Assembly: GCA_964016885.1 (NCBI GenBank)
Contig: OZ024743.1
Coordinates: forward strand, 10,230,001 to 10,294,000
Length of the DNA stretch: 64,000 nucleotides
Origin: Eledone cirrhosa
Taxonomy: Eukaryota
Direction of reading: 5' to 3'
The position numbers and the translations under genes were made by a program. This document shows, piece by piece, positions 3,428-57,241 of the stretch. Below the pieces are notes generated by a model. The model saw only the letters and a list, made by a program, of their open reading frames with translations, had not been told where the DNA came from and searched no databases. How positions within the stretch are numbered: position 1 is the first letter of the stretch; every line of letters begins with the position of its first letter.

Positions 3428-4909
3428 CATACATACAGGCACACATACATATATGCACGTATCAGTTTAGCGGACGCTTATTATAACGCCGCTTTGTTCG
3501 TTTGTAAACAAACTGAACAGCCTGAATTTTTATGCCGTACGGTGTTAAGGCAACCACGTCACCTTTTTGTTCAACACTGACACAGGAACGATGTACTAGT
3601 TTCAAGCCCGTTAGCTATCATCAGCACCGTATACCCATCTGCCAGATAGTTGAACGTTCGAAAGTATATACTTTCCCTATGAAAATTAACGGCTGAGCAG
3701 CCTAATTTGCATATCGAGTGAGCTAAGTCGGCCAGGCATACCGAAAACGATAAGTTGAAATAAAATGAAAACGAAATTTCATTTCTCACTCCTAGTACGG
3801 CACTTACTTGAATGTAAGTATATATATATATATATATCAGGGAGAGAGAGAAAGAATAAAGACGTTTAAAATGCACTTTTAAGAAGATTTATTTAATTAC
3901 TTTACTGGTTTCAAGATTGGAGTTTGGAAATTCTCTTGTCTTAAAGAAAGAATACGATTCAAATGAGATTTGTACTTTAATATTTTATGTAGAACATTGT
4001 ATAATTATGTAAAGAAGAAGAAAGAGAGTGTGTGGATAAATGAAGTGTTAGTATCACCATATGGGTAAGGAGAAGAGATGCCTGGATCGCACGTTATAGG
4101 AGGTTGGGAGCGAGCTAGAATGGAGGTTTGTAAACTGTGCTTGGGGGCGAATGCATGCATGATGTTGAGACGAGTGCCGTGTGTGTCTGGGCACCCAAAT
4201 TCGATATCAGTGAAGGGGAAAAAAGGAGAAAGAAAAGAAAAAGAGAAAAAAATATTTCTTTAGAACAGTAATCACAAAGTCAAAGATGAGAGGAGATCGA
4301 AAATTGAAAAAGGATCCCTGGGATGCACCGAAACAAAGAAGTGCTGAAATGGATGCCGTCCGTGTGCGTGTGTACATGCATTCAGAAGAGTTCTGAGAAA
4401 TGTCAGAGACTGTGGAGGAAAAGCATGTAAATGATGCGTTCACGAGTTACGTGTCATGCACGATCACGAACAAAATGTCAAATCGAAAGTTCGTTCACTC
4501 AATCCTGACACATTTCTCCACCGGAAACTATCTTCATTTAAGTACAGGATTGGCACCAAACTGGGGCCTGAAACTGTTGATAAAAGAGTCCTTCTTTAAT
4601 TCAGGATGGTGTGGTGTGACCTGAAAGAGATTTCAGCGCCACCTCCAGCAGGTCAAGCAACCGCATAGAGGCCTGCAGTCCCTCACTTGAGACAAACACA
4701 ATTGTTATAGGGATTAAACATAAGACCCGTATACTGATGATTTCTTATTAGTAGTGGCAGTAGTAGTAGTATTATCATATGGTGATTGCTGGTATGATGA
4801 TGGTGTATATTTCCTGATGATGGTCTTGTTGATGTAGTGGGAGTGCTGGGTTTTTTTAAGATGCAATTAACTGGTTGATGATGATCACGTGATTAGAATT
4901 TTGTTAGTT

Positions 4910-5300
4910 ATCCATCACGCATGTGCATTCAACGTCATATGGAGGCTCAAATATATGAACAATCTAGAATAAAATACACCTTACACTTCCATAACAAATT
5001 GCTAGAAAGCTGGTAACGTGACTTAGATGACTGCCCAATTCTGTAGACACACACTTTTGACTAACTCAATTATTTCAAAACTTAAATTAACATTATAAAC
5101 TATACAATGCAATATAGTCAGGATCAACTACTACTGTTGGATATTCTAATCATAAAGAAGGACGCAAACATTGAATTTGATATCCACTATAACCCAATGG
5201 ACTTTATGCAATACTAAAGCCATCCACGATTTACAAAGAAAAATATTTCGTTTAATTAAAGAAAACCAGTTTGCACAATTATTTTAAATATTCCTTGAAA
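4910..5300 (+). mobile_element. Decayed Penelope-like element (Neptune-like), reverse transcriptase palm/thumb fragment
   Basis: Reads MEAQIYEQSRIKY...ESW*RDLDDCPIL* (RYLDD-type catalytic motif at about 5017-5034), then YTMQYSQDQLLLLDILIIKKDANIEFDIHYNPMD, and after a frameshift HPRFTKKNISFN*RKPVCTII. These match the PLE RT motifs FTME...LPFLD...TDI.YKPTD...HP.H.K.NIPF.LARRIC.I. Confidence 0.75.
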
Positions 5301-8300
5301 CATTACCTATTACCATTACCATTACCTATTACCATTACCTATTACCATTACCATTACCATTACCATTACCTATTACCTATTACCATTACCATTACCATTA
5401 CCTATTACCTATTACCATTACCATTACCATTACCATTACCTATTACCTATTACCATTACCATTACCATTACCGTTACCATTACCTATTACCTATTACCAT
5501 TACCATTACCTATTACCATTACCATTACCATTACCTATTACCTATTACCATTACCATTACCTATTACCTATTACCATTACCATTACCATTACCATTACCT
5601 ATTACCTATTACCATTACCATTACCTATTACCATTACCATTACCATTACCTATTACCTATTACCATTACCTATTACCTATTACCATTACCATTACCATTA
5701 CCATTACCTATTACCTATTACCATTACCATTACCATTACCATTACCTATTACCTATTACCATTACCTATTACCTATTACCATTACCATTACCATTACCAT
5801 TACCTATTACCTATTACCATTACCATTACCTATTACCATTACCATTACCATTACCTATTACCTATTACCATTACCATTACCATTACCTATTACCATTACC
5901 ATTACCATTACCATTACCTATTACCTATTACCATTACCTATTACCTATTACCATTACCTATTACCTATTACCATTACCATTACCATTACCTATTACCATT
6001 ACCATTACCATTACCTATTACCTATTACCATTACCATTACCATTACCTATTACCATTACCTATTACCTATTACCATTACCTATTACCTATTACCATTACC
6101 TATTACCATTACCATTACCATTACCTATTACCATTACCTATTACCATTACCATTACCATTACCATTACCATTACCTATTACCTATTACCATTACCATTAC
6201 CATTACCTATTACCATTACCTATTACCTATTACCATTACCTATTACCTATTACCATTACCTATTACCATTACCATTACCATTACCATTACCTATTACCAT
6301 TACCATTACCTATTACCTATTACCATTACCTATTACCATTACCATTACCATTACCATTACCATTACCATTACCTATTACCTATTACCATTACCTATTACC
6401 ATTACCATTACCATTACCATTACCTATTACCTATTACCTATTACCATTACCTATTACCATTACCTATTACCATTACCATTACCTATTACCATTACCTATT
6501 ACCATTACCTATTACCATTACCATTACCATTACCATTACCATTACCATTACCTATTACCTATTACCATTACCTATTACCATTACCATTACCATTACCATT
6601 ACCATTACCTATTACCATTACCTATTACCTATTACCATTACCTATTACCTATTACCATTACCTATTACCATTACCATTACCATTACCTATTACCATTACC
6701 ATTACCATTACCATTACCTATTACCTATTACCATTACCTATTACCTATTACCATTACCTATTACCTATTACCATTACCATTACCTATTACCTATTACCAT
6801 TACCATTACCATTACCTATTACCATTACCATTACCTATTACCATTACCATTACCATTACCTATTACCTATTACCATTACCATTACCATTACCATTACCTA
6901 TTACCATTACCTATTACCTATTACCATTACCATTACCTATTACCTATTACCATTACCATTACCATTACCTATTACCATTACCTATTACCTATTACCATTA
7001 CCTATTACCTATTACCATTACCTATTACCATTACCATTACCTATTACCATTACCATTACCATTACCATTACCATTACCTATTACCTATTACCATTACCTA
7101 TTACCTATTACCATTACCTATTACCTATTACCATTACCATTACCTATTACCTATTACCATTACCATTACCATTACCATTACCTATTACCATTACCATTAC
7201 CTATTACCATTACCATTACCTATTACCATTACCATTACCATTAACATTACCTATTACCATTACCATTACCTATTACCATTACCATTACCATTACCTATTA
7301 CCTATTACCATTACCATTACCATTACCATTACCTATTACCATTACCATTACCTATTACCATTACCATTACCATTACCTATTACCATTACCATTACCTATT
7401 ACCTATTACCATTACCATTACCATTACCATTACCATTACCATTACCTATTACCATTACCATTACCATTACCTATTACCTATTACCATTACCATTACCATT
7501 ACCATTACCTATTACCATTACCATTACCTATTACCTATTACCATTACCATTACCATTACCATTACCATTACCTATTACCATTACCATTACCATTACCTAT
7601 TACCATTACCATTACCATTACCATTACCTATTACCATTATCATTACCATTACCTATTACCTATTACCATTACCATTACCATTACCATTACCATTACCTAT
7701 TACCATTACCATTACCATTACCTATTACCATTACCTATTACCTACCTATTACCATTACCATTACCATTACCTATTACCATTACCTATTACCTATTACCAT
7801 TACCTATTACCTATTACCATTACCTATTACCATTACCATTACCATTACCTATTACCATTACCTATTACCATTACCATTACCATTACCATTACCATTACCA
7901 TTACCTATTACCTATTACCATTACCATTACCATTACCTATTACCATTACCTATTACCTATTACCATTACCTATTACCTATTACCATTACCTATTACCATT
8001 ACCATTACCATTACCATTACCTATTACCATTACCATTACCTATTACCTATTACCATTACCTATTACCATTACCATTACCATTACCATTACCTATTACCTA
8101 TTACCATTACCTATTACCATTACCATTACCATTACCATTACCATTACCTATTACCTATTACCATTACCATTACCATTACCTATTACCATTACCATTACCT
8201 ATTACCTATTACCATTACCTATTACCATTACCATTACCATTACCATTACCATTACCATTACCTATTACCTATTACCATTACCTATTACCATTACCATTAC

Positions 8301-11300
8301 CATTACCATTACCTATTACCTATTACCATTACCATTACCTATTACCATTACCTATTACCTATTACCATTACCTATTACCTATTACCATTACCTATTACCA
8401 TTACCATTACCATTACCTATTACCATTACCATTACCATTACCATTACCATTACCTATTACCTATTACCATTACCTATTACCTATTACCATTACCTATTAC
8501 CTATTACCATTACCATTACCATTACCTATTACCTATTACCATTACCATTACCATTACCTATTACCATTACCATTACCTATTACCATTACCATTACCATTA
8601 CCTATTACCTATTACCATTACCATTACCATTACCTATTACCATTACCATTACCTATTACCATTACCATTACCATTACCTATTACCTATTACCTATTACCA
8701 TTACCATTACCATTACCATTACCATTACCTATTACCTATTACCATTACCATTACCATTACCATTACCATTACCTATTACCATTACCATTACCTATTACCA
8801 TTACCATTACCATTACCTATTACCTATTAACCATTACCATTACCATTACCTATTACCATTACCTATTACCTATTACCATTACCATTACATATTACCTATT
8901 ACCATTACCATTACCATTACCTATTACCATTACCTATTACCTATTACCATTACCTATTACCTATTACCTATTACCATTACCTATTACCATTACCATTACC
9001 TATTACCATTACCATTACCATTACCATTACCATTACCTATTACCTATTACCATTACCTATTACCTATTACCATTACCTATTACCTATTACCATTACCATT
9101 ACCTATTACCTATTACCATTACCATTACCATTACCATTACCTATTACCATTACCATTACCTATTACCATTACCATTACCTATTACCATTACCATTACCAT
9201 TACATTACCTATTACCATTACCATTACCTATTACCATTACCATTACCTATTACCTATTACCATTACCATTACCATTACCATTACCTATTACCATTACCAT
9301 TACCTATTACCATTACCATTACCATTACCTATTACCATTACCATTACCTATTACCTATTACCATTACCATTACCATTACCATTACCATTACCATTACCTA
9401 TTACCATTACCATTACCATTACCTATTACCTATTACCATTACCATTACCATTACCATTACCTATTACCATTACCATTACCTATTACCTATTACCATTACC
9501 ATTACCATTACCATTACCATTACCTATTACCATTACCATTACCATTACCTATTACCATTACCATTACCATTACCATTACCTATTACCATTAAATTACCAT
9601 TACCTATTACCATTACCATTACCATTACCATTACCATTACCATTACCTATTACCATTACCATTACCATTACCATTACCTATTACCATTACCTATTACCTA
9701 TTACCATTACCATTACCATTACCATTACCTATTACCATTACCTATTACCTATTACCATTACCATTACCATTACCTATTACCTATTACCATTACCATTACC
9801 ATTACCATTACCATTACCTATTACCATTACCATTACCTATTACCATTACCATTACCTATTACCTATTACCATTACCATTACCATTACCATTACCTATTAC
9901 CATTACCATTACCATTACCATTACCTATTACCATTACCATTACCATTACCATTACCTATTACCATTACCATTACCTATTACCTATTACCATTACCATTAC
10001 CATTACCATTACCATTACCTATTACCATTACCATTACCATTACCTATTACCATTACCATTACCATTACCTATTACCTACTACCATTACCATTACCTATTA
10101 CCATTACCATTACCATTACCTATTACCATTACCATTACCATTACCTATTACCATTACCATTACCATTACCTATTACCATTACCATTACCATTACCATTAC
10201 CTATTACCATTACCATTACCTATTACCATTACCATTACCATTACCTATTACCATTACCATTACCATTACCTATTACCATTACCATTACCTATTACCATTA
10301 CCATTACCATTACCTATTACCATTACCATTACCATTACCATTACCTATTACCATTACCATTACCTATTACCATTACCATTACCATTACCATTACCTATTA
10401 CCATTACCATTACCATTACCTATTACCATTACCATTACCTATTACCATTACCATTACCATTACATTACCTATTACCATTACCATTACCTATTACCATTAC
10501 CATTACCTATTACCTATTACCATTACCATTACCTATTACCTATTACCATTACCATTACCATTACCTATTACCATTACCATTACCATTACCATTACCTATT
10601 ACCATTACCATTACCATTACCTATTACCATTACCATTACCATTACCATTACCTATTACCTATTACCATTACCTATTACCTATTACCATTACCTATTACCT
10701 ATTACCATTACCATTACCATTACCTATTACCATTACCATTACCATTACCATTACCTATTACCTATTACCATTACCATTACCATTACCTATTACCATTACC
10801 TATTACCTATTACCATTACCTATTACCTATTACCATTACCTATTACCATTACCATTACCATTACCTATTACCATTACCTATTACCATTACCATTACCATT
10901 ACCATTACCATTACCATTACCTATTACCTATTACCATTACCATTACCATTACCTATTACCATTACCTATTACCTATTACCATTACCTATTACCTATTACC
11001 ATTACCTATTACCATTACCATTACCATTACCATTACCTATTACCATTACCATTACCTATTACCTATTACCATTACCTATTACCATTACCATTACCATTAC
11101 CATTACCTATTACCTATTACCATTACCTATTACCATTACCATTACCATTACCATTACCATTACCTATTACCTATTACCATTACCATTACCATTACCTATT
11201 ACCATTACCATTACCTATTACCTATTACCATTACCTATTACCATTACCATTACCATTACCATTACCATTACCATTACCTATTACCTATTACCATTACCTA

Positions 11301-14300
11301 TTACCATTACCATTACCATTACCATTACCTATTACCTATTACCATTACCATTACCTATTACCATTACCTATTACCTATTACCATTACCTATTACCATTAC
11401 CATTACCTATTACCATTACCATTACCATTACCTATTACCATTACCATTACCATTACCATTACCATTACCTATTACCTATTACCATTACCTATTACCATTA
11501 CCATTACCTATTACCTATTACCATTACCATTACCATTACCTATTACCTATTACCATTACCATTACCATTACCTATTACCATTACCATTACCTATTACCAT
11601 TACCATTACCTATTACCATTACCATTACCATTACCTATTAACCTATTACCATTACCATTACCATTACCTATTACCATTACCATTACCTATTACCATTACC
11701 ATTACCATTACCTATTACCTATTACCATTACCATTACCATACCATTACCATTACCTATTACCATTACCATTACCTATTACCATTACCATTACCATTACCT
11801 ATTACCTATTAACATTACCATTACCATTACCTATTACCATTACCTATTACCTATTACCATTACCATTACATATTACCTATTACCATTACCATTACCATTA
11901 CCTATTACCATTACCTATTACCTATTACCATTACCTATTACCTATTACCTATTACCATTACCTATTACCATTACCATTACCTATTACCATTACCATTACC
12001 ATTACCATTACCATTACCTATTACCTATTACCATTACCTATTACCTATTACCATTACCTATTACCTATTACCATTACCATTACCTATTACCTATTACCAT
12101 TACCATTACCATTACCATTACCTATTACCATTACCATTACCTATTACCATTACCATTACCTATTACCATTACCATTACCATTAACATTACCTATTACCAT
12201 TACCATTACCTATTACCATTACCATTACCTATTACCTATTACCATTACCATTACCATTACCATTACCATTACCATTACCATTACCTATTACCATTACCAT
12301 TACCATTACCTATTACCATTACCATTACCTATTACCTATTACCATTACCATTACCATTACCATTACCATTACCTATTACCATTACCATTACCATTACCTA
12401 TTACCTATTACCATTACCATTACCATTACCATTACCATTACCTTACCATTACCATTACCTATTACCTATTACCATTACCATTACCATTACCATTACCATT
12501 ACCTATTACCATTACCATTACCATTACCTATTACCATTACCATTACCAATACCATTACCTATTACCATTATCATTACCATTACCTATTACCTATTACCAT
12601 TACCATTACCATTACCATTACCATTACCTATTACCATTACCATTACCATTACCATTACCTATTACCATTACCTATTACCTATTACCATTACCATTACCAT
12701 TACCATTACCTATTACCATTACCTATTACCTATTACCATTACCATTACCATTACCTATTACCTATTACCATTACCATTACCATTACCATTACCATTACCT
12801 ATTACCATTACCATTACCTATTACCATTACCATTACCTATTACCTATTACCATTACCATTACCATTACCATTACCTATTACCATTACCATTACCATTACC
12901 TATTACCTATTACCATTACCATTACCATTACCATTACCTATTACCATTACCATTACCTATTACCTATTACCATTACCATTACCATTACCATTACCTATTA
13001 CCATTACCATTACCATTACCTATTACCATTACCATTACCATTACCTATTACCTAACTACCATTACCATTACCTATTACCATTACCATTACCATTACCTAT
13101 TACCATTACCATTACCATTACCTATTACCATTACCATTACCATTACCTATTACCATTACCATTACCATTACCATTACCTATTACCATTACCATTACCTAT
13201 TACCATTACCATTACCATTACCTATTACCATTACCATTACCATTACCTATTACCATTACCATTACCTATTACCATTACCATTACCATTACCTATTACCAT
13301 TACCATTACCATTACCATTACCTATTACCATTACCATTACCTATTACCATTACCATTACCATTACCTATTACCATTACCATTACCATTACCTTACCATTA
13401 CCATTACCATTACCTATTACCATTACCATTACCATTACCTATTACCATTCCATTACCATTACCTATACCATTACCATTACCATTACCATTACCTATTACC
13501 ATTACCATTAACCTATTACCATTACCATTACCATTACCTATTACCATTACCATTACCATTACCTATTACCATTACCATTACCTATTACCATTACCATTAC
13601 CATTACCATTACCTATTACCATTACCATTACCATTACCTATTACCTATTACCATTACCATTACCATTACCTATTACCATTACCATTACCTATTACCATTA
13701 CCATTACCATTACCTATTACCATTACCATTACCATTACCATTACCATTACCTATTACCATTACCATTACCATTACCATTACCATTACCTATTACCTATTA
13801 CCATTACCATTACCATTACCATTACCTATTACCATTACCATTACCATTACCATTACCTATTACCATTACCTATTACCATTACCTATTACCATTACCTATT
13901 ACCATTACCATTACCATTACCATTACCTATTACCATTACCCATTACCATTACCTATTACCATTACCATTACCATTACCTATTACCTATTACCATTACCAT
14001 TACCATTACCATTACCATTACCTATTACCATTACCTATTACCATTACCATTACCATTACCTATTACCTATTACCATTACCATTACCATTACCTATTACCA
14101 TTACCATTACCATTACCTATTACCATTACCTATTACCATTACCATTACCATTACCTATTGCCATTACCATTACCATTACCATTACCATTACCTATTACCA
14201 TTACCCATTACCATTACCATTACCATTACCTATTACCATTACCTATACCATTACCAATTACCATTACCATTACCTATTACCATTACCTATTACCTATTAC

Positions 14301-17300
14301 CATTACCATTACCATTACCTATTACCTATTACCATTACCATTACCTATTACCTATTACCATTACCATTACCATTACCTATTACCATTACCATTACCATTA
14401 CCTATTACCTATTACCATTACCATTACCATTACCTATTACCTATTACCATTACCATTACCTATTACCATTACCATTACCATTACCTATTACCATTACCAT
14501 TACCATTACCATTACCTATTACCTATTACCATTACCTATTACCATTACCTATTACCTATTACCATTACCATTACCATTACCTTTACCTATTACCATTACC
14601 ATTACCTATTACCATTACCTATTACCATTACCTATTACCATTACCATTACCATTACCATTACCTATTACCATTACCATTACCATTACCTATTACCTATTA
14701 CCATTACCATTACCTATTACCATTACCTATTACCATTACCATTACCATTACCATTACCTATTACCATTACCATTACCATTACCTATTACCATTACCTATT
14801 ACCATTACCATTACCATTACCATTACCTATTACCATTACCATTACCTATTACCATTACCATTACCATTACCATTACCATTACCTATTACCATTACCTATT
14901 ACCATTACCATTACCTATTACCATTACCATTACCATTACCTATTACCTATTACCATTACCATTACCATTACCAATTACCTATTACCATTACCTATTACCA
15001 TTACCATTACCATTACCTATTACCATTACCTATTACCATTACCATTACCATTACCATTACCTATTACCATTACCTATTACCATTACCTATTACCATTACC
15101 ATTACCATTACCTATTACCATTACCATTACCATTACCATTACCTATTACCATTAACTATTACCATTACCTATTACCATTACCATTACCATTACCTATTAC
15201 CATTACCATTACCATTACCTATTACCTATTACCCTTACCTATTACCATTACCAATTACCATTACCATTACCTATTACCATTACCTATTACCATTACCATT
15301 ACCATTACCTATTACCATTACCTATTACCATTACCATTACCATTACCATTACCTATTACCATTACCTATTACCATTACCTATTACCATTACCATTACCAT
15401 TACCTATTACCATTACCATTACCATTACCATTACCTATTACCATTAACTATTACCATTACCTATTACCATTACCATTACCATTACCTATTACCATTACCA
15501 TTACCATTACCATTACCTATTACCATTACCTATTACCATTACCATTACCATTACCTATTACCATTACCTATTACCATTACCATTACCATTACCATTACCT
15601 ATTACCATTACCTATTACCATTACCTATTACCATTACCATTACCATTACCTATTACCATTACCATTACCATTACCATTACCTATTACCATTACCATTACC
15701 ATTACCATTACCTATTACCATTAACTATTACCATTACCATTACCATTACCTATTACCATTACCTATTACCATTACCATTACCATTACCATTACCTATTAC
15801 CATTACCTATTACCATTACCATTACCATTACCTATTACCATTACCATTACCATTACCATTACCTATTACCATTACCTATTACCATTACCATTACCATTAC
15901 CTATTACCATTACCTATTACCATTACCATTACCATTACCTATTACCATTACCTATTACCATTACCATTACCATTACCATTACCTATTACCATTACCTATT
16001 ACCATTACCATTACCATTACCATTACCTATTACCATTACCTATTACCATTACCATTACCTATTACCTATTACCATTACCTATTACCATTACCATTACCAT
16101 TACCTATTACCATTACCATTACCATTACCTATTACCATTACCATTACCATTACCTATTACCATTACCATTACCATTACCTATTACCATTACCATTACCAT
16201 TACCTATTACCATTACCATTACCTATTACCTATTACCATTACCTATTACCATTACCATTACCATTACCATTACCATTACCTATTACCATTACCTATTACC
16301 ATTACCATTAGCATTACCATTACCTATTACCATTACCATTACCATTACCTATTACCATTACCATTACCATTACGTATTACCATTACCATTACCATTACCA
16401 TTACCTATTACCATTACCTATTACCATTACCATTACCATTACCATTACCTATTACCATTACCATTACCATTACCTATTACCATTACCTATTACCATTACC
16501 ATTACCATTACCATTACCATTACCATTACCTATTACCATTACCATTACCATTACCATTACCTATTACCATTACCATTACCATTACCTATTACCATTACCA
16601 TTACCATTACCATTACCATTACCTATTACCATTACCATTACCATTACCATTACCATTACCATTACCTATTACCATTACATATTACCATTACCTATTACCA
16701 TTACCATTACCATTACCATTACCTATTACCATTACCTATTACCATTACCATTACTATTACCATTACCTATTACCATTACCTATTACCATTACCATTACCA
16801 TTACCATTACCTATTACCATTACCATTACCATTACCTATTACCATTACCATTACCATTACCATTGCCATTACCTATTACCATTACCATTACCATTACCAT
16901 TACCTATTACCATTACCTATTACCATTACCATTACCATTACCATTACCATTACCTATTACCATTACCATTACCTATTACCATTACCTATTACCATTACCA
17001 TTACCATTACCATTACCATTACCTATTACCATTACCTATTACCATTACCATTACCATTACCTATTACCATTACCATTACCTATTACCATTACCATTACCA
17101 TTACCATTACCTATTACCTATTACCATTACCATTACCATTACCATTACCTATTACCTATTACCATTACCATTACCATTACCTATTACCATTACCATTACC
17201 ATTACCTATTACCATTACCATTACCATTACCTATTACCATTACCATTACCATTACCATTACCATTACCTATTACCATTACCATTACCATTACCTATTACC

Positions 17301-20300
17301 ATTACCATTACCATTACCTATTACCATTACCATTACCATTACCTATTACCATTACCATTACCATTACCATTACCTATTACCATTACCATTACCATTACCA
17401 TTACCTATTACCATTACCTATTACCATTACCATTACCTATTACCATTACCATTACCATTACCATTACCATTACCTATTACCATTACCATTACCATTACCT
17501 ATTACCATTACCTATTACCATTACCATTACCATTACCATTACCATTACCTATTACCATTACCATTACCATTACCTATTACCTATTACCATTACCATTACC
17601 ATTACCATTACCTATTACCATTACCTATTACCATTATCTATTACCATTACCATTACCATTACCATTACCATTACCTATTACCATTACCATTACCATTACC
17701 ATTACCATTACCATTACCATTACCATTACCTATTACCATTACCATTACCATTACCATTACCTATTACCATTACCTATTACCATTACCTATTACCATTACC
17801 ATTACCATTACCATTACCATTACCTATTACCATTACCTATTACCATTACCTATTACCATTACCATTACCATTACCATTACCATTACCTATTACCATTACC
17901 TATTACCATTACCATTACCATTACCATTACCATTACCTATTACCATTACCATTACCATTACCTATTACCTATTACCATTACCATTACCATTACCATTACC
18001 TATTACCATTACCTATTACCATTACCTATTACCATTACCATTACCATTACCTATTACCATTACCTATTACCATTACCTATTACCATTACCATTACCATTA
18101 CCTATTACCATTACCTATTACCATTACCATTACCATTACCTATTACCATTACCTATTACCATTACCATTACCATTACCATTACCATTACCTATTACCATT
18201 ACCTATTACCATTACCATTACCATTACCATTACCTATTACCATTACCATTACCATTACCATTACCATTACCATTACCTATTACCATTACCTATTACCATT
18301 ACCATTACCATTACCATTACCTATTACCATTACCATTACCATTACCTATTACCATTACCATTACCTATTACCATTACCTATTACCATTACCATTACCATT
18401 ACCTATTACCATTACCATTACCATTACCATTACCTATTACCATTACCATTACCATTACCATTACCTATTACCATTACCATTACCATTACCTATTACCATT
18501 ACCATTACCATTACCATTACCTATTACCATTACCTATTACCATTACCTATTACCATTACCATTACCATTACCATTACCTATTACCATTACCTATTACCAT
18601 TACCATTACCATTACCATTACCATTACCTATTACCATTACCTATTACCATTACCATTACCTATTACCATTACCATTACCATTACCATTACCTATTACCAT
18701 TACCATTACCATTACCTATTACCTATTACCATTACCATTACCATTACCTATTACCATTACCATTACCTATTACCATTACCTATTACCATTACCATTACCA
18801 TTACCATTACCTATTACCATTACCTATTACCATTACCATTACCATTACCATTACCTATTACCATTACCATTACCATTACCTATTACCATTACCATTACCA
18901 TTACCTATTACCATTACCTATTACCATTACCATTACCATTACCATTACCTATTACCATTACCATTACCATTACCTATTACCATTACCATTACCATTACCA
19001 TTACCTATTACCATTACCATTACCATTACGTATTACCATTACCATTACCATTACCATTACCTATTACCATTACCTATTACCATTACCTATTACCATTACC
19101 ATTACCATTACCATTACCATTACCTATTACCATTACCTATTACCATTACCATTACCATTACCATTACCTATTACCATTACCATTACCATTACCTATTACC
19201 ATTGCCATTACCATTACGTATTACCATTACCATTACCATTACCATTACCATTACCTATTACCATTACCATTACCATTACCATTACCTATTACCATTACCA
19301 TTACCTATTACCATTACCTATTACCATTACCATTACCATTACCATTACCATTACCTATTACCATTACCATTACCATTACCTATTACCATTACCATTACCT
19401 ATTACCATTACCTATTACCATTACCTATTACCATTACCATTACCATTACCATTACCATATTACCATTACCTATTACCATTACCATTACCATTACCATTAC
19501 CTATTACCATTACCATTACCATTACCATTACCATTACCTATTACCATTACCTATTACCATTACCATTACCATTACCATTACCTATTACCATTACCATTAC
19601 CATTACCTATTACCATTACCATTACCATTACCATTACCATTACCTATTACCATTACCATTACCATTACCTATTACCATTACCTATTACCATTACCATTAC
19701 CATTACCATTACCTATTACCATTACCATTACCATTACCTATTACCATTACCTATTACCATTACCATTACCATTACCATTACCATTACCTATTACCATTAC
19801 CTATTACCATTACCATTACCATTACCTATTACCATTACCATTACCTATTACCATTACCATTACCATTACCATTACCTATTACCTATTACCATTACCATTA
19901 CCATTACCATTACCTATTACCTATTACCATTACCATTACCATTACCTATTACCATTACCATTACCATTACCTATTACCATTACCATTACCATTACCTATT
20001 ACCATTACCATTACCATTACCATTACCTATTACCATTACCATTACCATTACCTATTACCATTACCATTACCATTACCTATTACCATTACCATTACCATTA
20101 CCTATTACCATTACCATTACCATTACCATTACCATTACCTATTACCATTACCATTACCATTACCTATTACCATTACCTATTACCATTACCATTACCTATT
20201 ACCATTACCATTACCATTACCATTACCTATTACCTATTACCATTACCATTACCATTACCATTACCTATTACCATTACCATTACCATTACCTATTACCATT

Positions 20301-23300
20301 ACCATTACCATTACCTATTACCATTACCATTACCATTACCTATTACCATTACCATTACCATTACCTATTACCATTACCATTACCATTACCATTACCTATT
20401 ACCATTACCATTACCATTACCTATTACCATTACCATTACCATTACCATTACCTATTACCTATTACCATTACCATTACCATTACCTATTACCATTACCATT
20501 ACCATTACCTATTACCATTACCATTACCATTACCTATTACCATTACCATTACCATTACCATTACCATTACCATTACCATTACCTATTACCATTACCATTA
20601 CCTATTACCATTACCTATTACCATTACCTATTACCATTACCATTACCATTACCTATTACCATTACCTATTACCATTACCATTACCATTACCTATTACCAT
20701 TACCTATTACCATTACCATTACCATTACCATTACCTATTACCATTACCATTACCATTACCTATTACCATTACCTATTACCATTACCATTACCTATTACCA
20801 TTACCATTACCATTACCATTACCATTACCTATTACCATTACCTATTACCATTACCATTACCATTACCATTACCTATTACCATTACCATTACCATTACCTA
20901 TTACCTATTACCATTACCATTACCTTTACCATTACCTATTACCATTACCTATTACCTATTACCATTACCATTACCTATTACCATTACCATTACCATTACC
21001 TATTACCATTACCTATTACCATTACCATTACCTATTACCATTACCTATTACCATTACCTATTACCATTACCATTACCATTACCATTACCATTACCATTAC
21101 CTATTACCATTACCTATTACCATTACCATTACCATTACCATTACCATTACCTATTACCATTACCTATTACCATTACCATTACCATTACCATTACCATTAC
21201 CTATTACCATTACCTATTACCATTACCATTACCATTACCTATTACCATTACCTATTACCTATTACCTATTACCATTACCTATTACCATTACCATTACCTA
21301 TTACCATTACCATTACCATTACCTATTACCATTACCTATTACCATTACCATTACCATTACCTATTACCATTACCTATTACCATTACCATTACCTATTACC
21401 ATTACCTATTACCATTACCTATTACCATTACCATTACCATTACCATTACCTATTACCATTACCATTACCATTACCATTACCATTACCTATTACCATTACC
21501 TATTACCATTACCTATTACCATTACCATTACCATTACCTATTACCATTACCATTACCATTACCTATTACCTATTACCATTACCTATTACCATACCATTAC
21601 CATTACCTATTACCATTACCATTACCATTACCATTACCTATTACCATTACCATTACCATTACCTATTACCATTACCATTACCATTACCATTACCTATTAC
21701 CATTACCTATTACCATTACCATTACCATTACCATTACCTATTACCATTACCTATTACCATTACCTATTACCATTACCATTACCATTACCTATTACCATTA
21801 CCATTACCATTACCTATTACCTATTACCATTACCATTACCATTACCTATTACCATTACCATTACCATTACCTATTACCATTACCTATTACCATTACCTAT
21901 TACCATTACCATTACCATTACCTATTACCATTACCTATTACCATTACCTATTACCATTACCATTACCATTACCTATTACCATTACCATTACCATTACCTA
22001 TTACCATTACCATTACCATTACCTATTACCATTACCATTACCGTTACCTATTACCATTACCATTACCATTACCTATTACCTATTACCATTACCTATTACC
22101 ATTACCATTACCATTACCTATTACCATTGCCTATTACCATTACCTATTACCATTACCATTACCTATTACCATTACCATTACCATTACCTATTACCATTAC
22201 CATTACCTATTACCATTACCATTACCATTACCTATTACCTATTACCATTACCATTACCTATTACCATTACCTATTACCTATTACCATTACCATTACCATT
22301 ACCTATTACCATTACCTATTACCTATTACCATTACCATTACCTATTACCATTACCTATTACCTATTACCATTACCTATTACCATTACCATTACCATTACC
22401 TATTACCTATTACCATTACCATTACCTATTACCATTACCCATTACCTATTACCATTACCATTACCTATTACCTATTACCATTACCATTACCATTACCTAT
22501 TACCATTACCATTACCATTACCTTTACCTATTACCATTACCATTACCTGTTACCATTACCTATTACCTATTACCATTACCATTACCTATTACCTATTACC
22601 ATTACCATTACCTATTACCATTACCATTACCTATTACCATTACCATTACCATTACCTATTACCATTACCATTACCATTACCTATTACCATTACCTATTAC
22701 CTATTACCATTACCATTACCATTACCATTACCTATTACCATTACCTATTACCATTACCTATTACCATTACCATTACCATTACCTATTACCATTACCATTA
22801 CCATTACCTATTACCATTACCTATTACCTATTACCATTACCATTACCTATTACCATTACCTATTACCTATTACCATTACCATTACCATTACCTATTACCA
22901 TTACCATTACCATTACCTATTACCATTACCATTACCATTACCTATTACCATTACCTATTACCTATTACCATTACCATTACCATTACCATTACCATTACCT
23001 ATTACCATTACCTATTACCATTACCTATTACCATTACCATTACCATTACCCATTACCATTACCATTACCATTACCTATTACCTATTACCTATTACCTATT
23101 ACCATTACCATTACCTATTACCATTACCATTACCATTACCTATTACCATTACCTATTACCTATTACCATTACCATTACCTATTACCATTACCTATTACCA
23201 TTACCTATTACCATTACCTATTACCATTACCATTACCATTACCTATTACCATTACCATTACCATTACCTATTACCTATTACCATTACCATTACCATTACC

Positions 23301-24024
23301 TATTACCATTACCTATTACCTATTACCATTACCATTACCATTACCTATTACCATTACCATTACCTATTACCGTTACCATTACCATTACCTATTACCATTA
23401 CCATTACCATTACCTATTACCATTACCTATTACCATTACCATTACCATTACCATTACCTATTACCATTACCATTACCTATTACCATTACCATTACCTATT
23501 ACCATTACCATTACCATTACCATTACCATTACCTATTACCATTACCATTACCTATTACCATTACCATTACCATTACCATTACCTATTACCATTACTATTA
23601 CCATTACCTATTACCATTACCATTACCATTACCATTACCATTACCTATTACCATTACCTATTACCATTACCATTACCATTACCTATTACCATTACCATTA
23701 CCTATTACCATTACCTATTACCATTACCATTACCATTACCTATTACCATTACCTATTACCATTACCATTACCATTACCTATTACCATTACCATTACCATT
23801 ACCATTACCTATTACCATTACCATTACCATTACCATTACCTATTACCATTACTATTACCATTACCTATTACCATTACCATTACCTATTACCATTACCATT
23901 ACCTATTACCATTACCATTACCATTACCTATTACCATTACCTATTACCATTACCTATTACCATTACCATTACCATTACCATTACCATTACCTATTACCAT
24001 TACCTATTACCATTACCTATTACC
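5301..24024. repeat. 18.7 kb satellite of interspersed ATTACC (6 nt) and TATTACC (7 nt) units; minus strand [GGTAAT(A)0-1]n
   Basis: Directly visible, very few other variant units. It produces the spurious poly-YH/LP/IT ORFs in the ORF track. Confidence 0.99.
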
Positions 24025-24930
24025 GTTTATATATAACATAACAGACATGACAAAACAATAAATTTTCCAAGAAATATGGAAAACAAAAAACACTTCAGAT
24101 CCCATGAGGTACATTTTCATTTTTTTTTTCATTTCACCAACCTCATTTACAGTGAGTGCTGGGTGTTTTTTTGCCGTGGCGCCTACACGTCCACTTTGCA
24201 GTGGAATGATAGGGAGCCCAGTCCCTATCATCTCATTTCTACAGCTGAGTAAACTGGAGCAATGTGAAATAAAGTGTCTTGCTCAAGGAAACAACACATC
24301 ACCCGGTCTGAGAGTTGAACTCACAACCTTTCGATTGCAAGGCCAATGCTCTAACCACTAAGCCATGTGCAGATGTACAAAATATTATCCACTAGAACAT
24401 TCCACTATTGTGAGTAGACCCTAGAATGAAAAAAGCACTCGAAATATATAGAATAATCAAAAGCCAAAGATAACCCCAAAAGCTCTTAAAAAACTACTTA
24501 CCAGTGCCAAATTACCAAACACCAACAGTTAAAAATTGTGATTGCCCTAATAGCGGCGCACATAAATTTAAATCAGGACACATTTTTGTTGTAAAACATA
24601 ATTGTGTTTTTATTGGCATTATAACAATATAATTTTACTTGTTCTTAAAAAAATGTTCTATATGCTATTAAGTGTAAAGAATGTAACGAAGACTACATAA
24701 GACAAACAAAACTTATCTTCAGAGACAAAATGACTATTCATCGTTAACAAGTACGAGACTCCAGCACTAGACAGACTCCACTCAGTGGGTATCTAGAGTT
24801 GTGTGAGACAAATACGTCCCCCAAGTTCCAAGGGTTACCTTTGTTCAGATAATACCACAGACCAAACACGAATAAATAAATAAAATATATTTCTACAAAT
24901 ATACTAACCACGGCTGAATAAACTTTAACA
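24025..24930 (+). mobile_element. Continuation of the Neptune-like PLE: linker and GIY-YIG endonuclease relic, interrupted by a SINE
   Basis: LPFI at the array end, then after the SINE DVQNIIH*NIPLL*VDPRMKKALEIYRIIKSQR*P..KLLTSAKL, and TCS*KNVLYAIKCKECNEDYIRQTKLIFRDKMTIHR*QVRD (GIY-YIG with CxxC between the motifs). A possible degenerate hammerhead (cata atgaaga...aaacgtc tatg) lies at 25162-25189. Confidence 0.75.
24135..24370 (-). mobile_element. tRNA-derived SINE, family B (V-domain-like), joined to an RTE 3'UTR-like segment
   Basis: Minus strand: gcacatggcttagtggttagagc (A box)...gtgagttcaactctc (B box)...gtttccttgagcaagacactttatttcacattgctccagtttactcagctg. The head is nearly identical to the copy at 62063-62437. 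Segment 24137-24204 resembles 42137-42203. Confidence 0.8.
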
Positions 24931-26491
24931 AGTTACATTTACTAACAACTTCCTTCTTTCATACACAATTCTTGTTCATTCTGCCTTTTGAGATATTGTA
25001 GTTACACAGTCAACAACCACTGCTTTGAGCATAATGATGACTTTTTCTCACATTTCAGTAATGCAGGGCCATAGTAGAGAACTTTTATACACCCAAATCT
25101 TGTTCATTCTGCTACTTGACATATTGAATTTACAGATCCCTTATTTCTTGGAATGCATGGACATAATGAAGAACGAACAAACGTCTATGCTTAATCATAT
25201 GATCATCCTCAACCACTCATATTGTATCTTAAACAGAGCAATTTCACCCATGTTCTCTTCATAAAACAGCTTTTATTTTGCTTTTATTTTTTTAATTTTC
25301 TTTCTTTTTAAAGAAAGAGAAAAAAAAAAAAAATTTACAGTCGAGTGGAGAAATGAGTAGCTAACATGATTGAGGTAGTCAGACAAATGACAGAACAATT
25401 AAACTTTAACTAATCCTAGATAGAACAGCAGTAGCAGAAAGCATTTGAAAGAGGAGAAAGATCTGGGACCTGAAAGACCCTCTTGGGTGGGAATAAATTC
25501 AAGAAAGTCTGGCTTGATGCTTATTACAACAAAGAAGAGATAGAAACCTACAATATAAAGGTAAGTGGGGATTCCTGTGAGACAACTTGGATACATATGA
25601 TGTCTGTCTGCCTGCTTTGTGAAAGGTTCCAGGAAGATGGTGGGTAACATGTTGGTAGAAAGCAGCAGCTTAGCTCACTACATTATGTGTGCACTTCACT
25701 CATTGTTTTTCAGCAGAAGCTGCCTGGTGTATTTTCTTTACTCATCCACTTTTTAAAGTATCACATAGCTCAGTAGCATAATGACTTTAAAAGTTTAACT
25801 GGGAGAACAGATAGATTGATAGGTAGATAGTTAGTTAAATAGGTAATTTGCTACGTAGGCAGACAAATTGGCAGATAGAAGTGTATGGATAAAGTGCCAG
25901 GCTACTTTAGGGGCTGATTGTTTTGTTGTCTTCTAACCAGCACTGTGTTAGCATGTTCCTAAGGTAACCTTACATATATCTTCTATGTGGAGAATATTTA
26001 TGTCTAATCAACAGTGCCTCAGAAATACAGACTGCTAGACTATCAACTACTTTTGGTCTAAAATGGATTAACCAATTAGGAGGAAAGAAATTTCAAAGGT
26101 AGAGAAATGTTATACCACTCATTTCTAAGCTTTAAGAATATAGGTAATAGTCATATGTATTGGTTTTTAATACATGTTACTGTGTATAAAATAGTATGTG
26201 AATGGTTTCTTTATATCGATTTGCCAGAGTATTTCAGCATGTTAAATTTAGATTTCATTTGAGTAGGAATTCATATAATTAATATTTTGACTTGGTACAA
26301 AGTCAATTTTTTGAGGCGTATAATACTGGCATTTTATTTTAATGATTTTGTCAAGATAAAGTGAAGAGTCCACTACAACACGATTTGAATTCAAGACATC
26401 GATAATTAAACAAAATATTGATTTATTATTTAGGCAAAAGTCACATAGATGAAATTAGATTTTCTTTTTGATATCATTATTATCATAAAAT

Positions 26492-30900: not shown

Positions 30901-33327
30901 ATGCATCACATTAAGCACCATAACCTTAAAATTGAATTTGATAACAACGTCAAACTAGCTAACTTCTTGGATTTATCCCTTAATCTTGACACTGGCCTAT
31001 ATTACCCTTACCATAAAAACAATGAAAATCTAAATTATATTAACTTTAAATCTAACCACCCCACTAATGTTAAAAATGCTATAGTCAGTAATATTGAAAA
31101 AAGAATCTCAAATCTATCCTCTAATAAAGTTATCTTCGACGCTAATGTCAATTACTATAATAATGCGCTTTCCAAAGCCGGTTATCCTGATAAAATTAAA
31201 TACAGTAAAGAAACCAATCATCGAAGGAATTATAGTAAAACAGTTAATTATGAACATTTCAATAAATTAAATAAAAAACCTAGATACAAAAGTATTATTT
31301 AGTATAAAGCTCCTTTTTCTCTAACTATAACTAATAATATTCCTAAACTATTCTTTAGGGCCTTAGATAAATGCTTCCCTCCCTTGCATATCTATAGTAA
31401 AATCTTTAACAAACATACAATCAAATTTTAGTATTCCACCACTTTCAACATCTCTAACATTATCTCTAAACACAATAATAAAATATTAAACAATAAATTA
31501 CATCCATCCAACACTGAGCGTCATAATAATAGCAGTAGTATACCCGACGTCATTGTTAACTCTAGGCTAGATTCAGTAAATTTAAATACGACGTCAAACG
31601 TAACTTCGTTCAATGTTCATAATACCAATCTAAATCAGGAAACTATAGTTCCTATAGTAAATAACTTCTCCAATCCAATTCCTTCTATAAATAATACTAG
31701 GTCACTTGCTACTAACTCTGTTAATTTCTCTAATCGTAATTGTAATTGCCCTGTTAGAACTAAATGTCCTCTTAAAAACTTAGTGTATGAATGTAAGATT
31801 ATAACTGGTACTAATTCTTTTACCTATTTCGGTTCCACTTCCACTTCTTTTAAAGCTAGATTTTATAATCACAAATCGTCTTTTAAATACCAACTCAAAA
31901 GAACTAACACGGCACTCTCGGAACTCATATGGTCCTTAAAAGACAAAAATATTAACTATAACATATCTTGGAGGAAAGTTTGCTACGCCTTTCCTTACCT
32001 GAATTCTTCCCTACCCAGAACATGTAATCTCTGCCTAGCCGAGAAATTTACCATTATATCCAATTTTAATTCTATAATAAATAGACGTACGGATTTATTC
32101 TCGCTCTGCTTGCATAAATCCCATAGAACCTTCCATAAAGTATACAGCTAAAATTTCAAATACATAATTAGTTTAAAATCTTTTTTCTCAAAGGCTTTTA
32201 TATCTATTACAAATATACCCATCTTTCTACCTTATTTCAGTATATTATATTATACAATTTACTCCTTCTATATCGTTAGAGGTCCCATATCTTTTTCTTC
32301 TTTTACCCTTTTTTCCTTTCTTTTCTTTTTTTCTTTTTTAATTTCTAATCTTTAATCTGTAACTTTTATTTCCCAATTACTTCTCAATTCATATTATTAC
32401 TCACTACAGCATTTTCCATTTTTCCATTTTCCTCATATTATTGGCCATAGAAACTATATTTTTTAATACATAATAATATTACCATTAGGAAATTTTTGTA
32501 AACATATATACTTTTTGACGTTAGATATCTTCTTCCTTAAATTTTCTTTTTTCTTCTCTCCTTCCGTACTCGTTTTAAACCTATTATTTACTTTTACATA
32601 TTACAATACATAAAAACAAACTTAAACCCTAACTAATTCCTCTAAGTTCATAATTCATTTATTCTTCTCCTTCTCTCTCATTATATCCTTAATATTATTA
32701 ATATTTTTATTTTAATAATACATATTAATAATTTTTTTCGCACATATTATTAAACCCTTCAATATATAAACCTTTAATACTATTCTTAATTCCTTTTTCT
32801 TTAATCATAAACATCAACATCAATAAACCTCATTAACTCTTAATTTCAAAATCTTTTTAAATTATCTATTATCTTCCAACGGTTTTTTTAAATTTCTCTG
32901 TTGTAAAGGCTATTTCTCTCTCTCTCTCTATCACTCATTTCTCCTCCTCTCTCATCCTTCCTTCTTATACTCCTCCCACTTCATCCTTTATTTTCTTTCT
33001 TCCTCTTCCTTACCATTTCCGACCCCCCCTCCTTTTTTTCCCAATCTCATATATCCATCTCATTTTATTTTTCATATGTTGATTTAAAACTTCACTGCTC
33101 ACAAGTGTTTTTTAAACTTCCTATAATGTTTCCCTATTTTATCTGATGAGTACGCAAATATCATCCCATGATGATATTTGTTTTTGAAATGCGCATAATA
33201 AAATACTTGGAACTCTTTTAACCATCTTTTGATCTTATATTATTTATACTCCAGTCCTATAAACTGTGGAGTGCTACTTATCCGATGCTTGCATTGCTTT
33301 ATTGTTGCTACAATAAAACTCACCTCC
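30901..33327 (+). mobile_element. 5'-truncated Naiad-like PLE (RT thumb, linker, GIY-YIG, long 3'UTR, pLTR)
   Basis: ORF 30901-31302: NFLDLSLNLDTGLYYPYHK...SNHP...RISNLSS...F...Y..AL.KAGY. It continues past stops as KAPFS...CFPP...KIFN. ORF 31783-32151 is preceded by CNC...CPL and reads VYEC...YFGSTSTSFKARFYNHKSSF...TALSELIWSLK...ISW...CNLCLAEK...NRR...CLH. Ends at (TA)n. Confidence 0.88.
33135..33205 (+). ncRNA. Minimal type I hammerhead ribozyme in the PLE pLTR
   Basis: tattttat CTGATGA g..caaatatcat/atgatatttg.. GAAA tgcgca TA ataaaata. Perfect 8 bp stem I, 10 bp hairpin in stem II, palindromic ATGCGCAT stem III, AUA site. Confidence 0.8.
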
Positions 33328-35246: not shown

Positions 35247-35467
35247 ATAAATAAACAGTTTTAAAAATGCCGCATTAGCTAATACAACATCTTTAGCTGA
35301 AATAATTAATAATTATAGAAAGAGGAATATAGATTATGACCTGACCTGGAGTGTGCTCAAAAGGGCCACCCCTTATCAAAATAATAGATATGAATGTAGA
35401 TTGTGTTCCCAAGAACTTTTCGAAATAATGAAATCTAAGGATATCCTATTAAATAAGCGACAGGAAT

Positions 35468-35845
35468 TAATAGTTGTTTCTACTTTAGGCACAAGGCCAG
35501 CAATTATCCAGTGCATTACTGGTACTTTATTTTATCGACCCCGTAAGGATGAAAGGCAAAGTCAACCTCGGCGGGATTTGAACTCAGATCGTAAAGGGAC
35601 GTAACTATGCTGGAAAGCATGGCGTCCGACCCTCTACCGATACTGCCAATCCACCGGGAATTAATAATTGTTTCTACTTTTGGCACAAGGCCAGCAATTA
35701 CCAAGTGTATTACTGGTACTTTATTTTATCGACCCCGTAAGGATGAAAGGCAAAGTTAACCTCGGCGGGATTTGAACTCAGATCGTAAAGGGACGTAACT
35801 ACGCTGGAAAGCATGTCTGACCCTCTACCAATACTGCCAATTCAC
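35468..35845 (-). mobile_element. Two tandem SINE family A copies (about 35468-35656 and 35662-35845)
   Basis: Two consecutive near-identical reverse-complement copies, each preceded on the plus strand by ggaattaata. Confidence 0.9.
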
Positions 35846-48098: not shown

Positions 48099-48665
48099 TA
48101 TCACTCAATCTTCAATAGGCATACAATTAAATTAACCTACTCATCCACCAAAAATTTAGCACAAAATATTAATAGAATAAATAATAGGAACTTAAAACCT
48201 ACTGATAATAGCATAAATAATATACAAGTTAACAAATGTAACTGTAGAGATAGATCTAAATGTCCGTTAAATAACAACTGCTTAGTTAAAAATATAGTAT
48301 ACAATTGTAATGTTAATACTGACTCTAATTCTTTTAACTACGTCGGTTCCACATCGACGGAATTTAAACTTCGCTATAATAACCACAAGAATTCTTTCAC
48401 AGATCCAAATAAAAAATCTTCAACGGCACTATCAGGCGTACTCTGGCAACTTAAGCTAGATAACGTTAGATACTCGACGGCTTGGAATATAGTCTCAAGA
48501 GGGATTCCTTTTAATTCATCCTCTGAGACATGTGACCTCTGCGCAGAGGAGATATTCTTTATACTAAAATCTAAAAATTCCCTTAACCTACGGACAAATT
48601 TATTCAGTTGTTGCAAACATAGATTAAACTCAACGTTTAAATATAAATTTAAATTTAAAATGTAG
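48099..48665 (+). pseudogene. Uninterrupted 3' part of the PLE ORF (linker + GIY-YIG); no start codon, so absent from the ORF track
   Basis: YHSIFNRHTIKLTYSST...KCNCRDRSKCPLNNNCLVKNIVYNC...YVGSTSTEFKLRYNNHKNSF...STALSGVLWQLK...W...CDLCAEE...LNLR...CCKH...KM*. Confidence 0.88.
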
Positions 48666-57163: not shown

Positions 57164-57241
57164 AAAGGGATGGAGAAACCATCCTTCCTTTACGAGAAGT
57201 AAGGTAAGTGGTCTTTCCCATCTTTTCCACTCCATTTCAAC

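Follow-up and report, generated by a model that had tools for sequence, protein, structure and literature searches.

The array and the element that carries it

The stretch of Eledone cirrhosa DNA analysed here (the window, 64 kb, with no ambiguous base) contains, as assembled, a tandem array of 18,723 nt on the + strand, from 5302 (or 5301) to 24024. The array is a mosaic of ATTACC (about two-thirds) and ATTACCT (about one-third), comprising about 2,960 units, all of one polarity; parsing gave 2,930 tokens, of which 1,955 were ATTACC, 918 ATTACCT, and 57 irregular. The coordinates, the mixture of units, and the junction letters agreed with a previous reading made from the sequence alone (the sequence-only reading). 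As assembled, the unit of less than 10 nt and the multi-kilobase length are those of an expanded simple tandem repeat. The run lengths of the units departed strongly from a memoryless order (P = 3e-39), and predicted folding of either strand gave 0 kcal/mol over 100 nt. Genome-wide pattern searches placed the ATTACC/ATTACCT array at a single position in the 3.0-Gb genome, on a 378.8-Mb scaffold and 10.2 Mb inward from its start: 381 out of 381, 89 out of 89, and 177 out of 178 matches fell inside the window, no second array with the 7-mer ATTACCT was found, and the 7-7-6 pattern occurred outside only once, as an isolated 20-mer. The literature search, which covered few subscription papers, found no report of the array or its unit.

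Sequence comparison shows that both flanks of the array are one 5′-truncated, decayed Penelope-like element (PLE). As the sequence-only reading had proposed, the reverse transcriptase (RT) to the left and the linker/GIY-YIG region to the right belong to the same family, lie on the same strand, and follow the expected order, being co-linear in 26 of 35 loci; the host is indeed badly decayed, with 11 stops among 265 aligned codons. Beside the truncation point, part of the element's 3′ region recurs in inverted orientation (4855–4922, − strand); it matches 25192–25233 (83% over 42 nt, E = 1e-6) and also the relatives L005, L032, L034, and L038 in their own 3′ regions. The C-terminal part of the RT follows (4937–5289, + strand, six stops); 4939–5289 matches the L043 ORF by tblastn (56% over 125 aa, E = 5e-25), and the best DNA relative, L002, is 78% identical. 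Alignments show only an I-L-L-E codon remnant at 5290–5300 (+ strand), left after a deletion of about 39 nt and further 2-nt losses. The deletion, read from the alignments as 13 codons located 12 nt upstream of the array, gives partial support to the claim that the thumb segment upstream had been deleted, although the segment as a whole is not missing. As a single-sequence structure model of the L042 ORF (pLDDT 33) was set aside, and the one match of a PDB sequence search (E = 0.26) was taken as chance, we take the R-x-Y-P region to be the thumb on the basis of general PLE anatomy.

To the right of the array the element resumes in register but decayed, with the codons L-I-D-N-G-I-E-R-A-K-A-I-D-I-Q-E-L-R-K (24025–24105, + strand; 79% identity to L097 over 76 nt). 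A tRNA-derived SINE-like insertion (24135–24370, − strand), with dispersed matches at unrelated positions of L003, L004, L006, L007, L017, and L020, stands in place of the family's L-P-Y linker motif; its Rfam tRNA match (24310–24365) is weak, with 27.3 bits against a cut-off of 29. The frameshifted linker and GIY-YIG endonuclease region runs up to the stop codon (24370–24928, + strand; tblastn E = 5e-42 for 24369–24925), and the 3′ non-coding part (24929–25262, + strand) matches sequence downstream of the ORF in L097, L005, and L020.

In the relatives, the RT is followed by a C-terminal GIY-YIG in one ORF, as in EN+ Penelope-like elements. Pfam RVT_1 was found in L049 (32.6 bits, cut-off 29.6) and GIY-YIG in L042 and L043 (28.4 and 31.9 bits, cut-off 22.6). 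PMC8557442 describes a CX2-5CxxC linker in Neptune/Nematis, lacking in Penelope/Poseidon, and a CCHH motif in the endonuclease. Inspection of the L042 and L043 translations by eye revealed a C-X4-C-XX-C linker and an endonuclease CxxC..H..H, and the 5′ structure is likewise similar to that of Neptune/Nematis-type elements, with the inverted 3′ piece here and a partial tandem (an upstream 3′ copy) in L096. This likeness is one of motifs rather than of a tree, and an Rfam scan of six loci, all decayed copies, gave no hammerhead match at E values up to 0.5.

Junctions and seed of the array

The array occupies the position of the family's R-Q-Y-P-S-M codons. The family reads E-R-Q-Y-P-S/P-L/M-L-I-D-N at this site, and the real linker motif, I-L-P/S-Y-I-S-T-H-N-P, lies 33 codons downstream. 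The sequence-only reading had collapsed the array to one ATTACC unit, read E-T-L-P-F-I across it as the LPF start of the linker, and taken the unit to equal the element's own coding sequence. The alignments and the spacing in the relatives rule out this junction and this collapse: E-T-L-P-F-I is a chance out-of-frame reading, a one-unit junction was found in none of 35 relatives, and ATTACC was present at the site in none of the 27 in which the site was resolvable, nor is it in the family consensus, where that reading had predicted it. A 13-nt collapse (ATTACCT plus ATTACC) instead restores the family spacing in 23 of the 27 resolvable relatives and in 17 of 18 motif-anchored relatives (of 25). 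Pairwise scoring mildly preferred the same collapse (mean 46.7, versus 43.8–45.7 for the others), with 8 out of 25 relatives uninformative.

Column counts place a putative seed, a 7-mer plus a 6-mer, at the start of the array (5301–5314, + strand), over the family's Q-Y-P-S-M codons. Against a family profile, the first 12 nt of the array ranked 10–17 among 1,119 sites (top 0.9–1.5%) in the actual phase, and the first 14 nt ranked 40–71 among 1,117, a modest match. The nearest relatives shared 10–11 of the 14 letters, the closer ones 8–11, and several 7. Among the 23 gapless relatives, the two C>T seed states were present in four and five and the T of the 7-mer in four, including L002, while letters 13 and 14 were present in none and one. 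The continuity of array and host is strong on both sides, whereas the derivation of the unit from the host sequence is partial; of the claimed local origin, the resemblance of the site to the unit stands in part and their identity does not. A partial match (top 1–6% of sites) fits a seed made by decay. No family-wide seed was evident: a seed-pattern search gave 53 matches versus 49 for the control, and when 29 of the 53 loci, all other than the window itself, were compared with the family, no match appeared at E = 1e-4. A subfamily pattern was found only at the site of L012 and at the window's own right junction, which suggests that there is no un-expanded haplotig; a search with 24019–24134 returned only itself, and no un-expanded allele was seen.

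Two other sources of the first units bear on this junction. In one, a break was repaired by copying a pre-existing CATTAC-type repeat through CAGTACC microhomology, and the captured tract later expanded. A CATTAC-rich array is present on the same scaffold (C4:307.017–307.023 Mb), short (ATTACC)3 runs occur at nine other places, and microhomology would also account for a match that is only partial and for the two letters that disagree. However, the second unit of that array is CATTAT, with zero copies of ATTACCTATTACC, the 7-7-6 pattern elsewhere is limited to the isolated 20-mer, the T of the 7-mer is explained locally, and the net length change at the site is zero; we consider such a capture unlikely. 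In the other, a nearly fully truncated SINE supplied the first units from its tail, since a common SINE of this genome ends ..GAAAC(A/C)ATTA.., and these units then expanded. SINE ends in L066 and L077 do carry CATTACC-like tails resembling the left junction, GAAACATTACC, but no SINE body precedes the array, the left-junction letters align with the L-E-R-Q-Y-P codons of the element itself, and there is neither a target duplication nor a net change in length, making this origin extremely improbable.

Internal duplications and growth of the array

Nested duplications of 0.3–5 kb are present in the assembled array. The longest exact internal repeat, at an offset of 3,016, comprises 98 units, whereas 45 Markov simulations gave none longer than 30. 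A tandem duplication of about 3 kb with rare variants in common (7354–13355, + strand; copies 7354–10378 and 10397–13355) has 438 units matched of 474/460, and parts of the block are present in a further copy at a distance of about 1.96 kb. A second duplication (16881–20248, + strand; copies 16881–17488 and 19646–20248) has an offset of 2,765. In total, 7 of 29 tiles exceeded the maximum of 232 local-null tiles, and the other 22, including all beyond 20.3 kb, showed no duplication above the null.

The duplicated blocks share 92–95% unit identity and could in part be a product of assembly stitching. It might be argued that the array is real but that stitched haplotypes or an over-extended repeat account for some of its length or internal duplications, the array length and right junction being those of the assembly. 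In run X1, one array 31-mer class had about 24 times the flank depth (244.3/10.2), versus 59 assembly copies, and in the triplicated block the copy in the middle has altered forms of the shared rare variants. On the other hand, X1 and X2 contigs (one sample, possibly the assembly's own) cover the left junction over 4741–5330 without a difference; their depth there is that of a single copy, and inside the array the summed depth rises abruptly, to 689 and 495. The window has no N, and the flanks meet in register with the family, unlike a random misjoin. We regard such a partial artefact as quite improbable. RAD runs X4 and X5 gave five and one partial reads, leaving the junction uncovered.

We favour, as the probable explanation, that the array grew in place within the one decayed element by slippage, an option that the sequence-only reading had named, and block duplication. 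Two steps can be read at the locus itself: a 5′-truncated RT–GIY-YIG element was inserted and decayed, and the array now takes up its Q-Y-P-S-M codons, with zero net length change after collapse to a 7-mer and a 6-mer. The substitutions G>T, C>T, and C>T probably turned CAG TAC CCA TCA into the near-dimer ATTA-CCT-ATTA. Slippage probably produced 7-nt repeats and the loss of one T the 6-mer, and homogenization may have overwritten the last imperfect unit, leaving two letters not common to the relatives. Unequal exchange or replication-linked block duplication, of which the duplications in the assembly would be the product, probably brought the array to 18.7 kb. Growth after the decay of the element, as had been proposed, is supported: only 57 of 2,930 tokens are irregular whereas the host differs by at least 22% from the best relative found, so that the much cleaner array appears younger than the insertion. 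The element's own RT, probably dead by then, is not needed for this, and no function of the array is implied.

A second mosaic array, CATTAC/CATTAT (6.4 kb, with internal duplications), is that at C4:307.017–307.023 Mb, with no family match within 20 kb, showing that this genome makes such arrays independently of the family.

Relation to known repeats

Birth in place by ordinary slippage and block duplication would make the array a large case of a kind of repeat already known; it is not the telomere sequence of this genome. The closest known counterparts are the expanded simple repeats of mouse, among which Ms6-hm reaches many kilobases. These repeats have high germline mutation rates (PMC3419097). 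Tables in PMC9659126 and PMC6947457 give MaLR LTRs as the birthplace of Ms6-hm and Hm-2 and, for (GGCAGA)n, expansion of the dimer GAGGCA within B1 SINEs. The array resembles these, as so described, in its very short unit, great length, and origin from a near-dimer within a retroelement, but its host is a Penelope-like coding region, its seed is private to one copy instead of a family-wide dimer, and two unit lengths are mixed. Microsatellites are also born in the non-LTR elements Alu and L1 (e.g., the Friedreich GAA in Alu), where substitution creates a proto-repeat that slippage expands (PMC3812793); those arise mostly from A-rich tracts, whereas this array would have come from codons and has reached about 2,960 units. 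Even as an ordinary case, the locus is a clean natural record of the birth of a satellite: as many family copies stand for the pre-expansion state, the seed codons, the zero length change, and the layers of duplication can be read at one locus. Comparing individuals at this locus would allow a test of how a microsatellite becomes an 18-kb simple satellite.

Telomeres and reverse transcriptase

Seven of 27 scaffold ends carried TTAGGG/CCCTAA and none ATTACC/GGTAAT; ten-unit TTAGGG matches numbered 35,072 in the genome, and the array unit is identical to TTAGGG at four of six positions. The TTAGGG ends, interstitial site, single polarity, and co-linear flanks rule out an origin as a telomere or head-to-head fusion site. 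Schizosaccharomyces pombe telomerase reportedly yields heterogeneous products, GGTTAC(A), with which the array shares a core hexamer, an optional base, and a G-rich strand; unlike them, it is interstitial, is not the genome's telomere unit, is patterned, and is duplicated at the kilobase scale.

The sequence-only reading had put forward reiterative, telomerase-like copying as a possible builder. Such synthesis is unlikely as the main one, given the TTAGGG telomeres, the kilobase-scale duplications, and the related array in an unrelated context far from such elements; nor was the unit order set afresh without long copied blocks, as the 98-unit exact repeat and the 3-kb duplication show. These blocks still leave room for an RT to have made the first few units. 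A telomerase-type or Penelope-like RT might have seeded the array by copying an RNA template reiteratively at a break, with recombination enlarging it afterwards. The two unit lengths differ by one terminal base, the RTs of PLEs form the sister group of telomerase RT (PMC8557442), and a (GGTAAT)3 run, the one oddity for growth in place and one of nine dispersed matches, sits exactly at the 5′ break of family copy L180, while the family itself occurs about once in 304 kb of loci chosen independently of it. That run, however, is oriented opposite to the element's sense strand, the triple repeat was found at none of 30 unselected 5′ boundaries, and no other of the 35 family copies has such an array; the telomere repeat, the scaffold ends, the site 10.2 Mb inside its scaffold, and an array so much cleaner than its host also count against RT seeding, which we judge very unlikely. 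Equally slight is the chance that a Penelope-family RT adds GGTAAT/ATTACC at the broken ends of its own copies, giving both the L180 scar and the seed of this array, later enlarged by recombination. If true, it would show a Penelope RT adding repeats in vivo in the manner of telomerase, with a bearing on the origin of telomerase, but the evidence mostly points away from it.

Results and discussion

The ATTACC/ATTACCT array (window 5302-24024, + strand; GGTAAT on the other strand) is most likely a new case of expanded simple repeats born in a transposable element, unusually long but arising by an ordinary mechanism. Searches of the Eledone cirrhosa genome with each flank gave at least 41 and at least 43 matches, from which 35 distinct loci were compared, self and three duplicates being excluded. 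Both flanks were matched in order and on one strand in 26 of the 35, confirming the sequence-only reading that the host is one Penelope-like element (PLE). Less decayed relatives exceeded the Pfam cut-offs for RVT_1 (32.6 bits, locus L049) and GIY-YIG (L042 and L043), and relatives' proteins map to window 4939-5289 (E = 5e-25) and 24369-24925 (E = 5e-42). By eye, the relatives have a C-X4-C-XX-C linker and a CxxC..H..H nuclease; because the accessible part of PMC8557442 places linkers of this type in Neptune/Nematis and not in Penelope/Poseidon, these motifs point to a putative Neptune/Nematis-type family. Truncated at its 5' end, the window copy has an inverted stretch of the element's 3' region at 4855-4922; it also carries a SINE-like insert (about 24135-24370), shows 11 stops over 265 aligned codons and shares 78% identity with the best relative among the matches listed.

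Tandem Repeats Finder revealed a single array (window 5301-24024), and cutting at ATTAC yielded 2,930 tokens, comprising 1,955 ATTACC, 918 ATTACCT and 57 irregular ones, which bears out the array as a real feature. G is nearly absent from its + strand along the full length, no N occurs anywhere in the window, and the window lies at 10.23-10.29 Mb on a 378.8-Mb scaffold of the 3.0-Gb assembly. All 381 genome matches of an array 31-mer and all 89 of (ATTACC)6 fall inside the window, as do 177 of 178 for a 7-7-6 pattern and 664 of 675 for (ATTACC)4. The left flank is present in three sequencing runs, all of one sample, which may be the assembly's own. Contigs of runs X1 and X2 span 4741-5330 with zero differences, crossing the left junction at full depth (10.2 and 4.8, with 11 and 6 in the adjoining sequence), and no joint or loose end was seen there among those listed, six further loose ends lying outside that list; coverage in the RAD runs X4 and X5 stops short of the junction. 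Summed depth inside the array climbs to 689 (X1) and 495 (X2). Since one array word class in X1 reached about 24 times flank depth against 59 assembled copies, the assembly may overstate the length, or the second haplotype may have a shorter array.

The junction letters quoted in the sequence-only reading are those of the sequence, but the interpretation placed on them was wrong: its one-unit junction occurs in none of the 35 relatives, and ATTACC at the junction in none of the 27 with a resolvable site. By alignment, the family sequence at the site is N-Y-E-T-R-N-K-R-L-Q-E-L-K-E-I-L-L-E-R-Q-Y-P-S/P-L/M-L-I-D-N-G-I-E-R-A-K, and the array occupies the Q-Y-P-S-M codons, in what we take to be the RT thumb. 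The window copy lacks about 39 nt, located 12 nt upstream of the array, and a further 2 nt immediately before it; the peptide E-T-L-P-F-I is therefore an out-of-frame accident. It had been taken for the LPF linker motif, which we reject, the real motif (I-L-P/S-Y-I-S-T-H-N-P) lying 33 codons past Q. ATTACCT-ATTACC both opens and closes the array, and collapsing the array to these 13 nt gives the family spacing, gapless, in 23 of the 27 resolvable relatives (8 of the 35 have no resolvable site), and the family spacing again in 17 of 18 motif-anchored relatives (the anchor is absent in 7 of 25). Pairwise scoring lends this collapse mild support: its mean score is 46.7, compared with 43.8 when one unit is left and 45.6-45.7 under two further collapses, with ties in 8 of 25 relatives.

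Derivation of the unit from the element's own coding sequence held only in part. Array letters 1-12 differ from the commonest family letters in three columns, by one G>T and two C>T changes; of 23 relatives, 4 and 5 show the respective C>T states, while 0 and 1 have letters 13 and 14. The seed is matched at 10/14 in L002 and 11/14 in L004, and at only 7/14 in several relatives. When the family column profile was scored in every array phase and on both strands, sites scoring as well as the array start numbered 10-17 of 1,119 for 12 nt; for 14 nt they numbered 40-71 of 1,117. On this scoring the site is unusually unit-like (P about 0.01-0.06), and the unit, not itself family sequence, would derive partly from the element. 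A seed-pattern search stayed at control level (53 matches against 49), and none of the 29 non-self loci fetched belongs to the family. The seed is probably private to the window copy, a product of decay after insertion. An unrelated AT-rich dispersed repeat family (L064, L068, L078, L082, L087 and others) contains GAAAGACATTACCTATTA, whose resemblance to the left junction is, as far as tested, a coincidence.

The succession of 6- and 7-mers is not a memoryless process: their run lengths depart from a geometric distribution (P = 3e-39). The longest exact internal repeat is 98 units (offset 3,016 nt) and 11 repeats reach at least 30 units; across 45 Markov simulations of the array the longest was 30 units, and repeats of at least 30 units numbered 3 in total. 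Segments 7354-10378 and 10397-13355 align over 438 matched units of 474 and 460, with rare variants in common. Unequal exchange or replication-linked duplication generates nested block duplication. Seven of 29 array tiles scored above every one of 232 tiles simulated locally; duplication above the null was absent in the other 22, including all beyond 20.3 kb. The right part is thus either older, more heavily scrambled or differently built. Part of the duplication pattern could be assembly stitching.

A boundary pattern revealed a second array, a 6.4-kb CATTAC/CATTAT mosaic on scaffold C4 (307,017,010-307,023,387; L178 and L179), which lacks ATTACCTATTACC, encloses two near-identical SINE copies and has a longest repeat of 29 against a null maximum of 21 in 15 runs. 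The PLE family had no match in the 20 kb fetched around it; this genome thus makes multi-kb CATTAC mosaics without this element. Other CAA, CAT and CAC expansions surround this array.

Seeding of the repeats by the element's RT, the telomerase-like route proposed earlier, is very improbable. Nine dispersed (ATTACC)3 lie outside the two arrays, and one favours that route: (GGTAAT)3 stands precisely at another family copy's 5' break, between a SINE tail and the break (L180:1465-1490; C4:334699670-334699689). The family occurs once in 304 kb of loci picked irrespective of family, and chance placement of this repeat at a family break is of the order of 1 in 1,000, as estimated post hoc. With respect to the element, however, the L180 repeat runs in the opposite polarity to the window array, a triple repeat was found at none of 30 unselected 5' boundaries, and we read it as repair filler. 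The telomeres also argue against RT seeding: ten-unit TTAGGG has 35,072 genome matches and TTAGGG in telomeric polarity stands at 7 of 27 scaffold ends read, whereas ATTACC or GGTAAT dimers stand at none of the 27; the array unit shares 4 of 6 letters with TTAGGG. Moreover, with only 57 irregular tokens in 18.7 kb against a host with many stops, the array would be younger than the insertion, when the RT acted.

Growth in place by ordinary means has precedents. In the accessible parts of the sources, substitution and then slippage gives repeats born in place in Alu and L1 (PMC3812793), mouse Ms6-hm and Hm-2 originate in MaLR LTRs and mouse (GGCAGA)n in a dimer within B1 (PMC6947457; PMC9659126), all three with high mutation rates (PMC3419097), and satellites derived from Penelope elements are described in general (PMC12692304); nested block duplication is ascribed to unequal exchange or replication-linked duplication (PMC9659126). 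The E. cirrhosa array is of this documented kind, at unusual length. No account of it was found in a literature search whose coverage mostly excluded subscription papers.

A dense interstitial TTAGGG cluster lies at C1:217861277-218010708 and beyond, about midway along a 443-Mb scaffold; as four scaffolds measure 379-443 Mb and the others seen at most 137 Mb, past chromosome fusions are suggested. Degenerate TTAGGG-type interstitial repeat of about 1 kb (L039:8-1019; scaffold C3, about 239.53 Mb) lies at most 1.5 kb from a family copy. Window fragments 31432-32148 and 48036-48662 (both +) show C-N-C..C-P-L motifs together with a tail resembling GIY-YIG; they had no Pfam match and likely represent another Penelope-like family. 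A common SINE is frequently found in inverted or tandem pairs (L096:5790-6174, L097:5304-5614, window 35463-35845). At window 57203-60244 (+), within GC-rich sequence, an open reading frame of 1,014 aa encodes endonuclease and RT domains and marks a young and possibly intact LINE.
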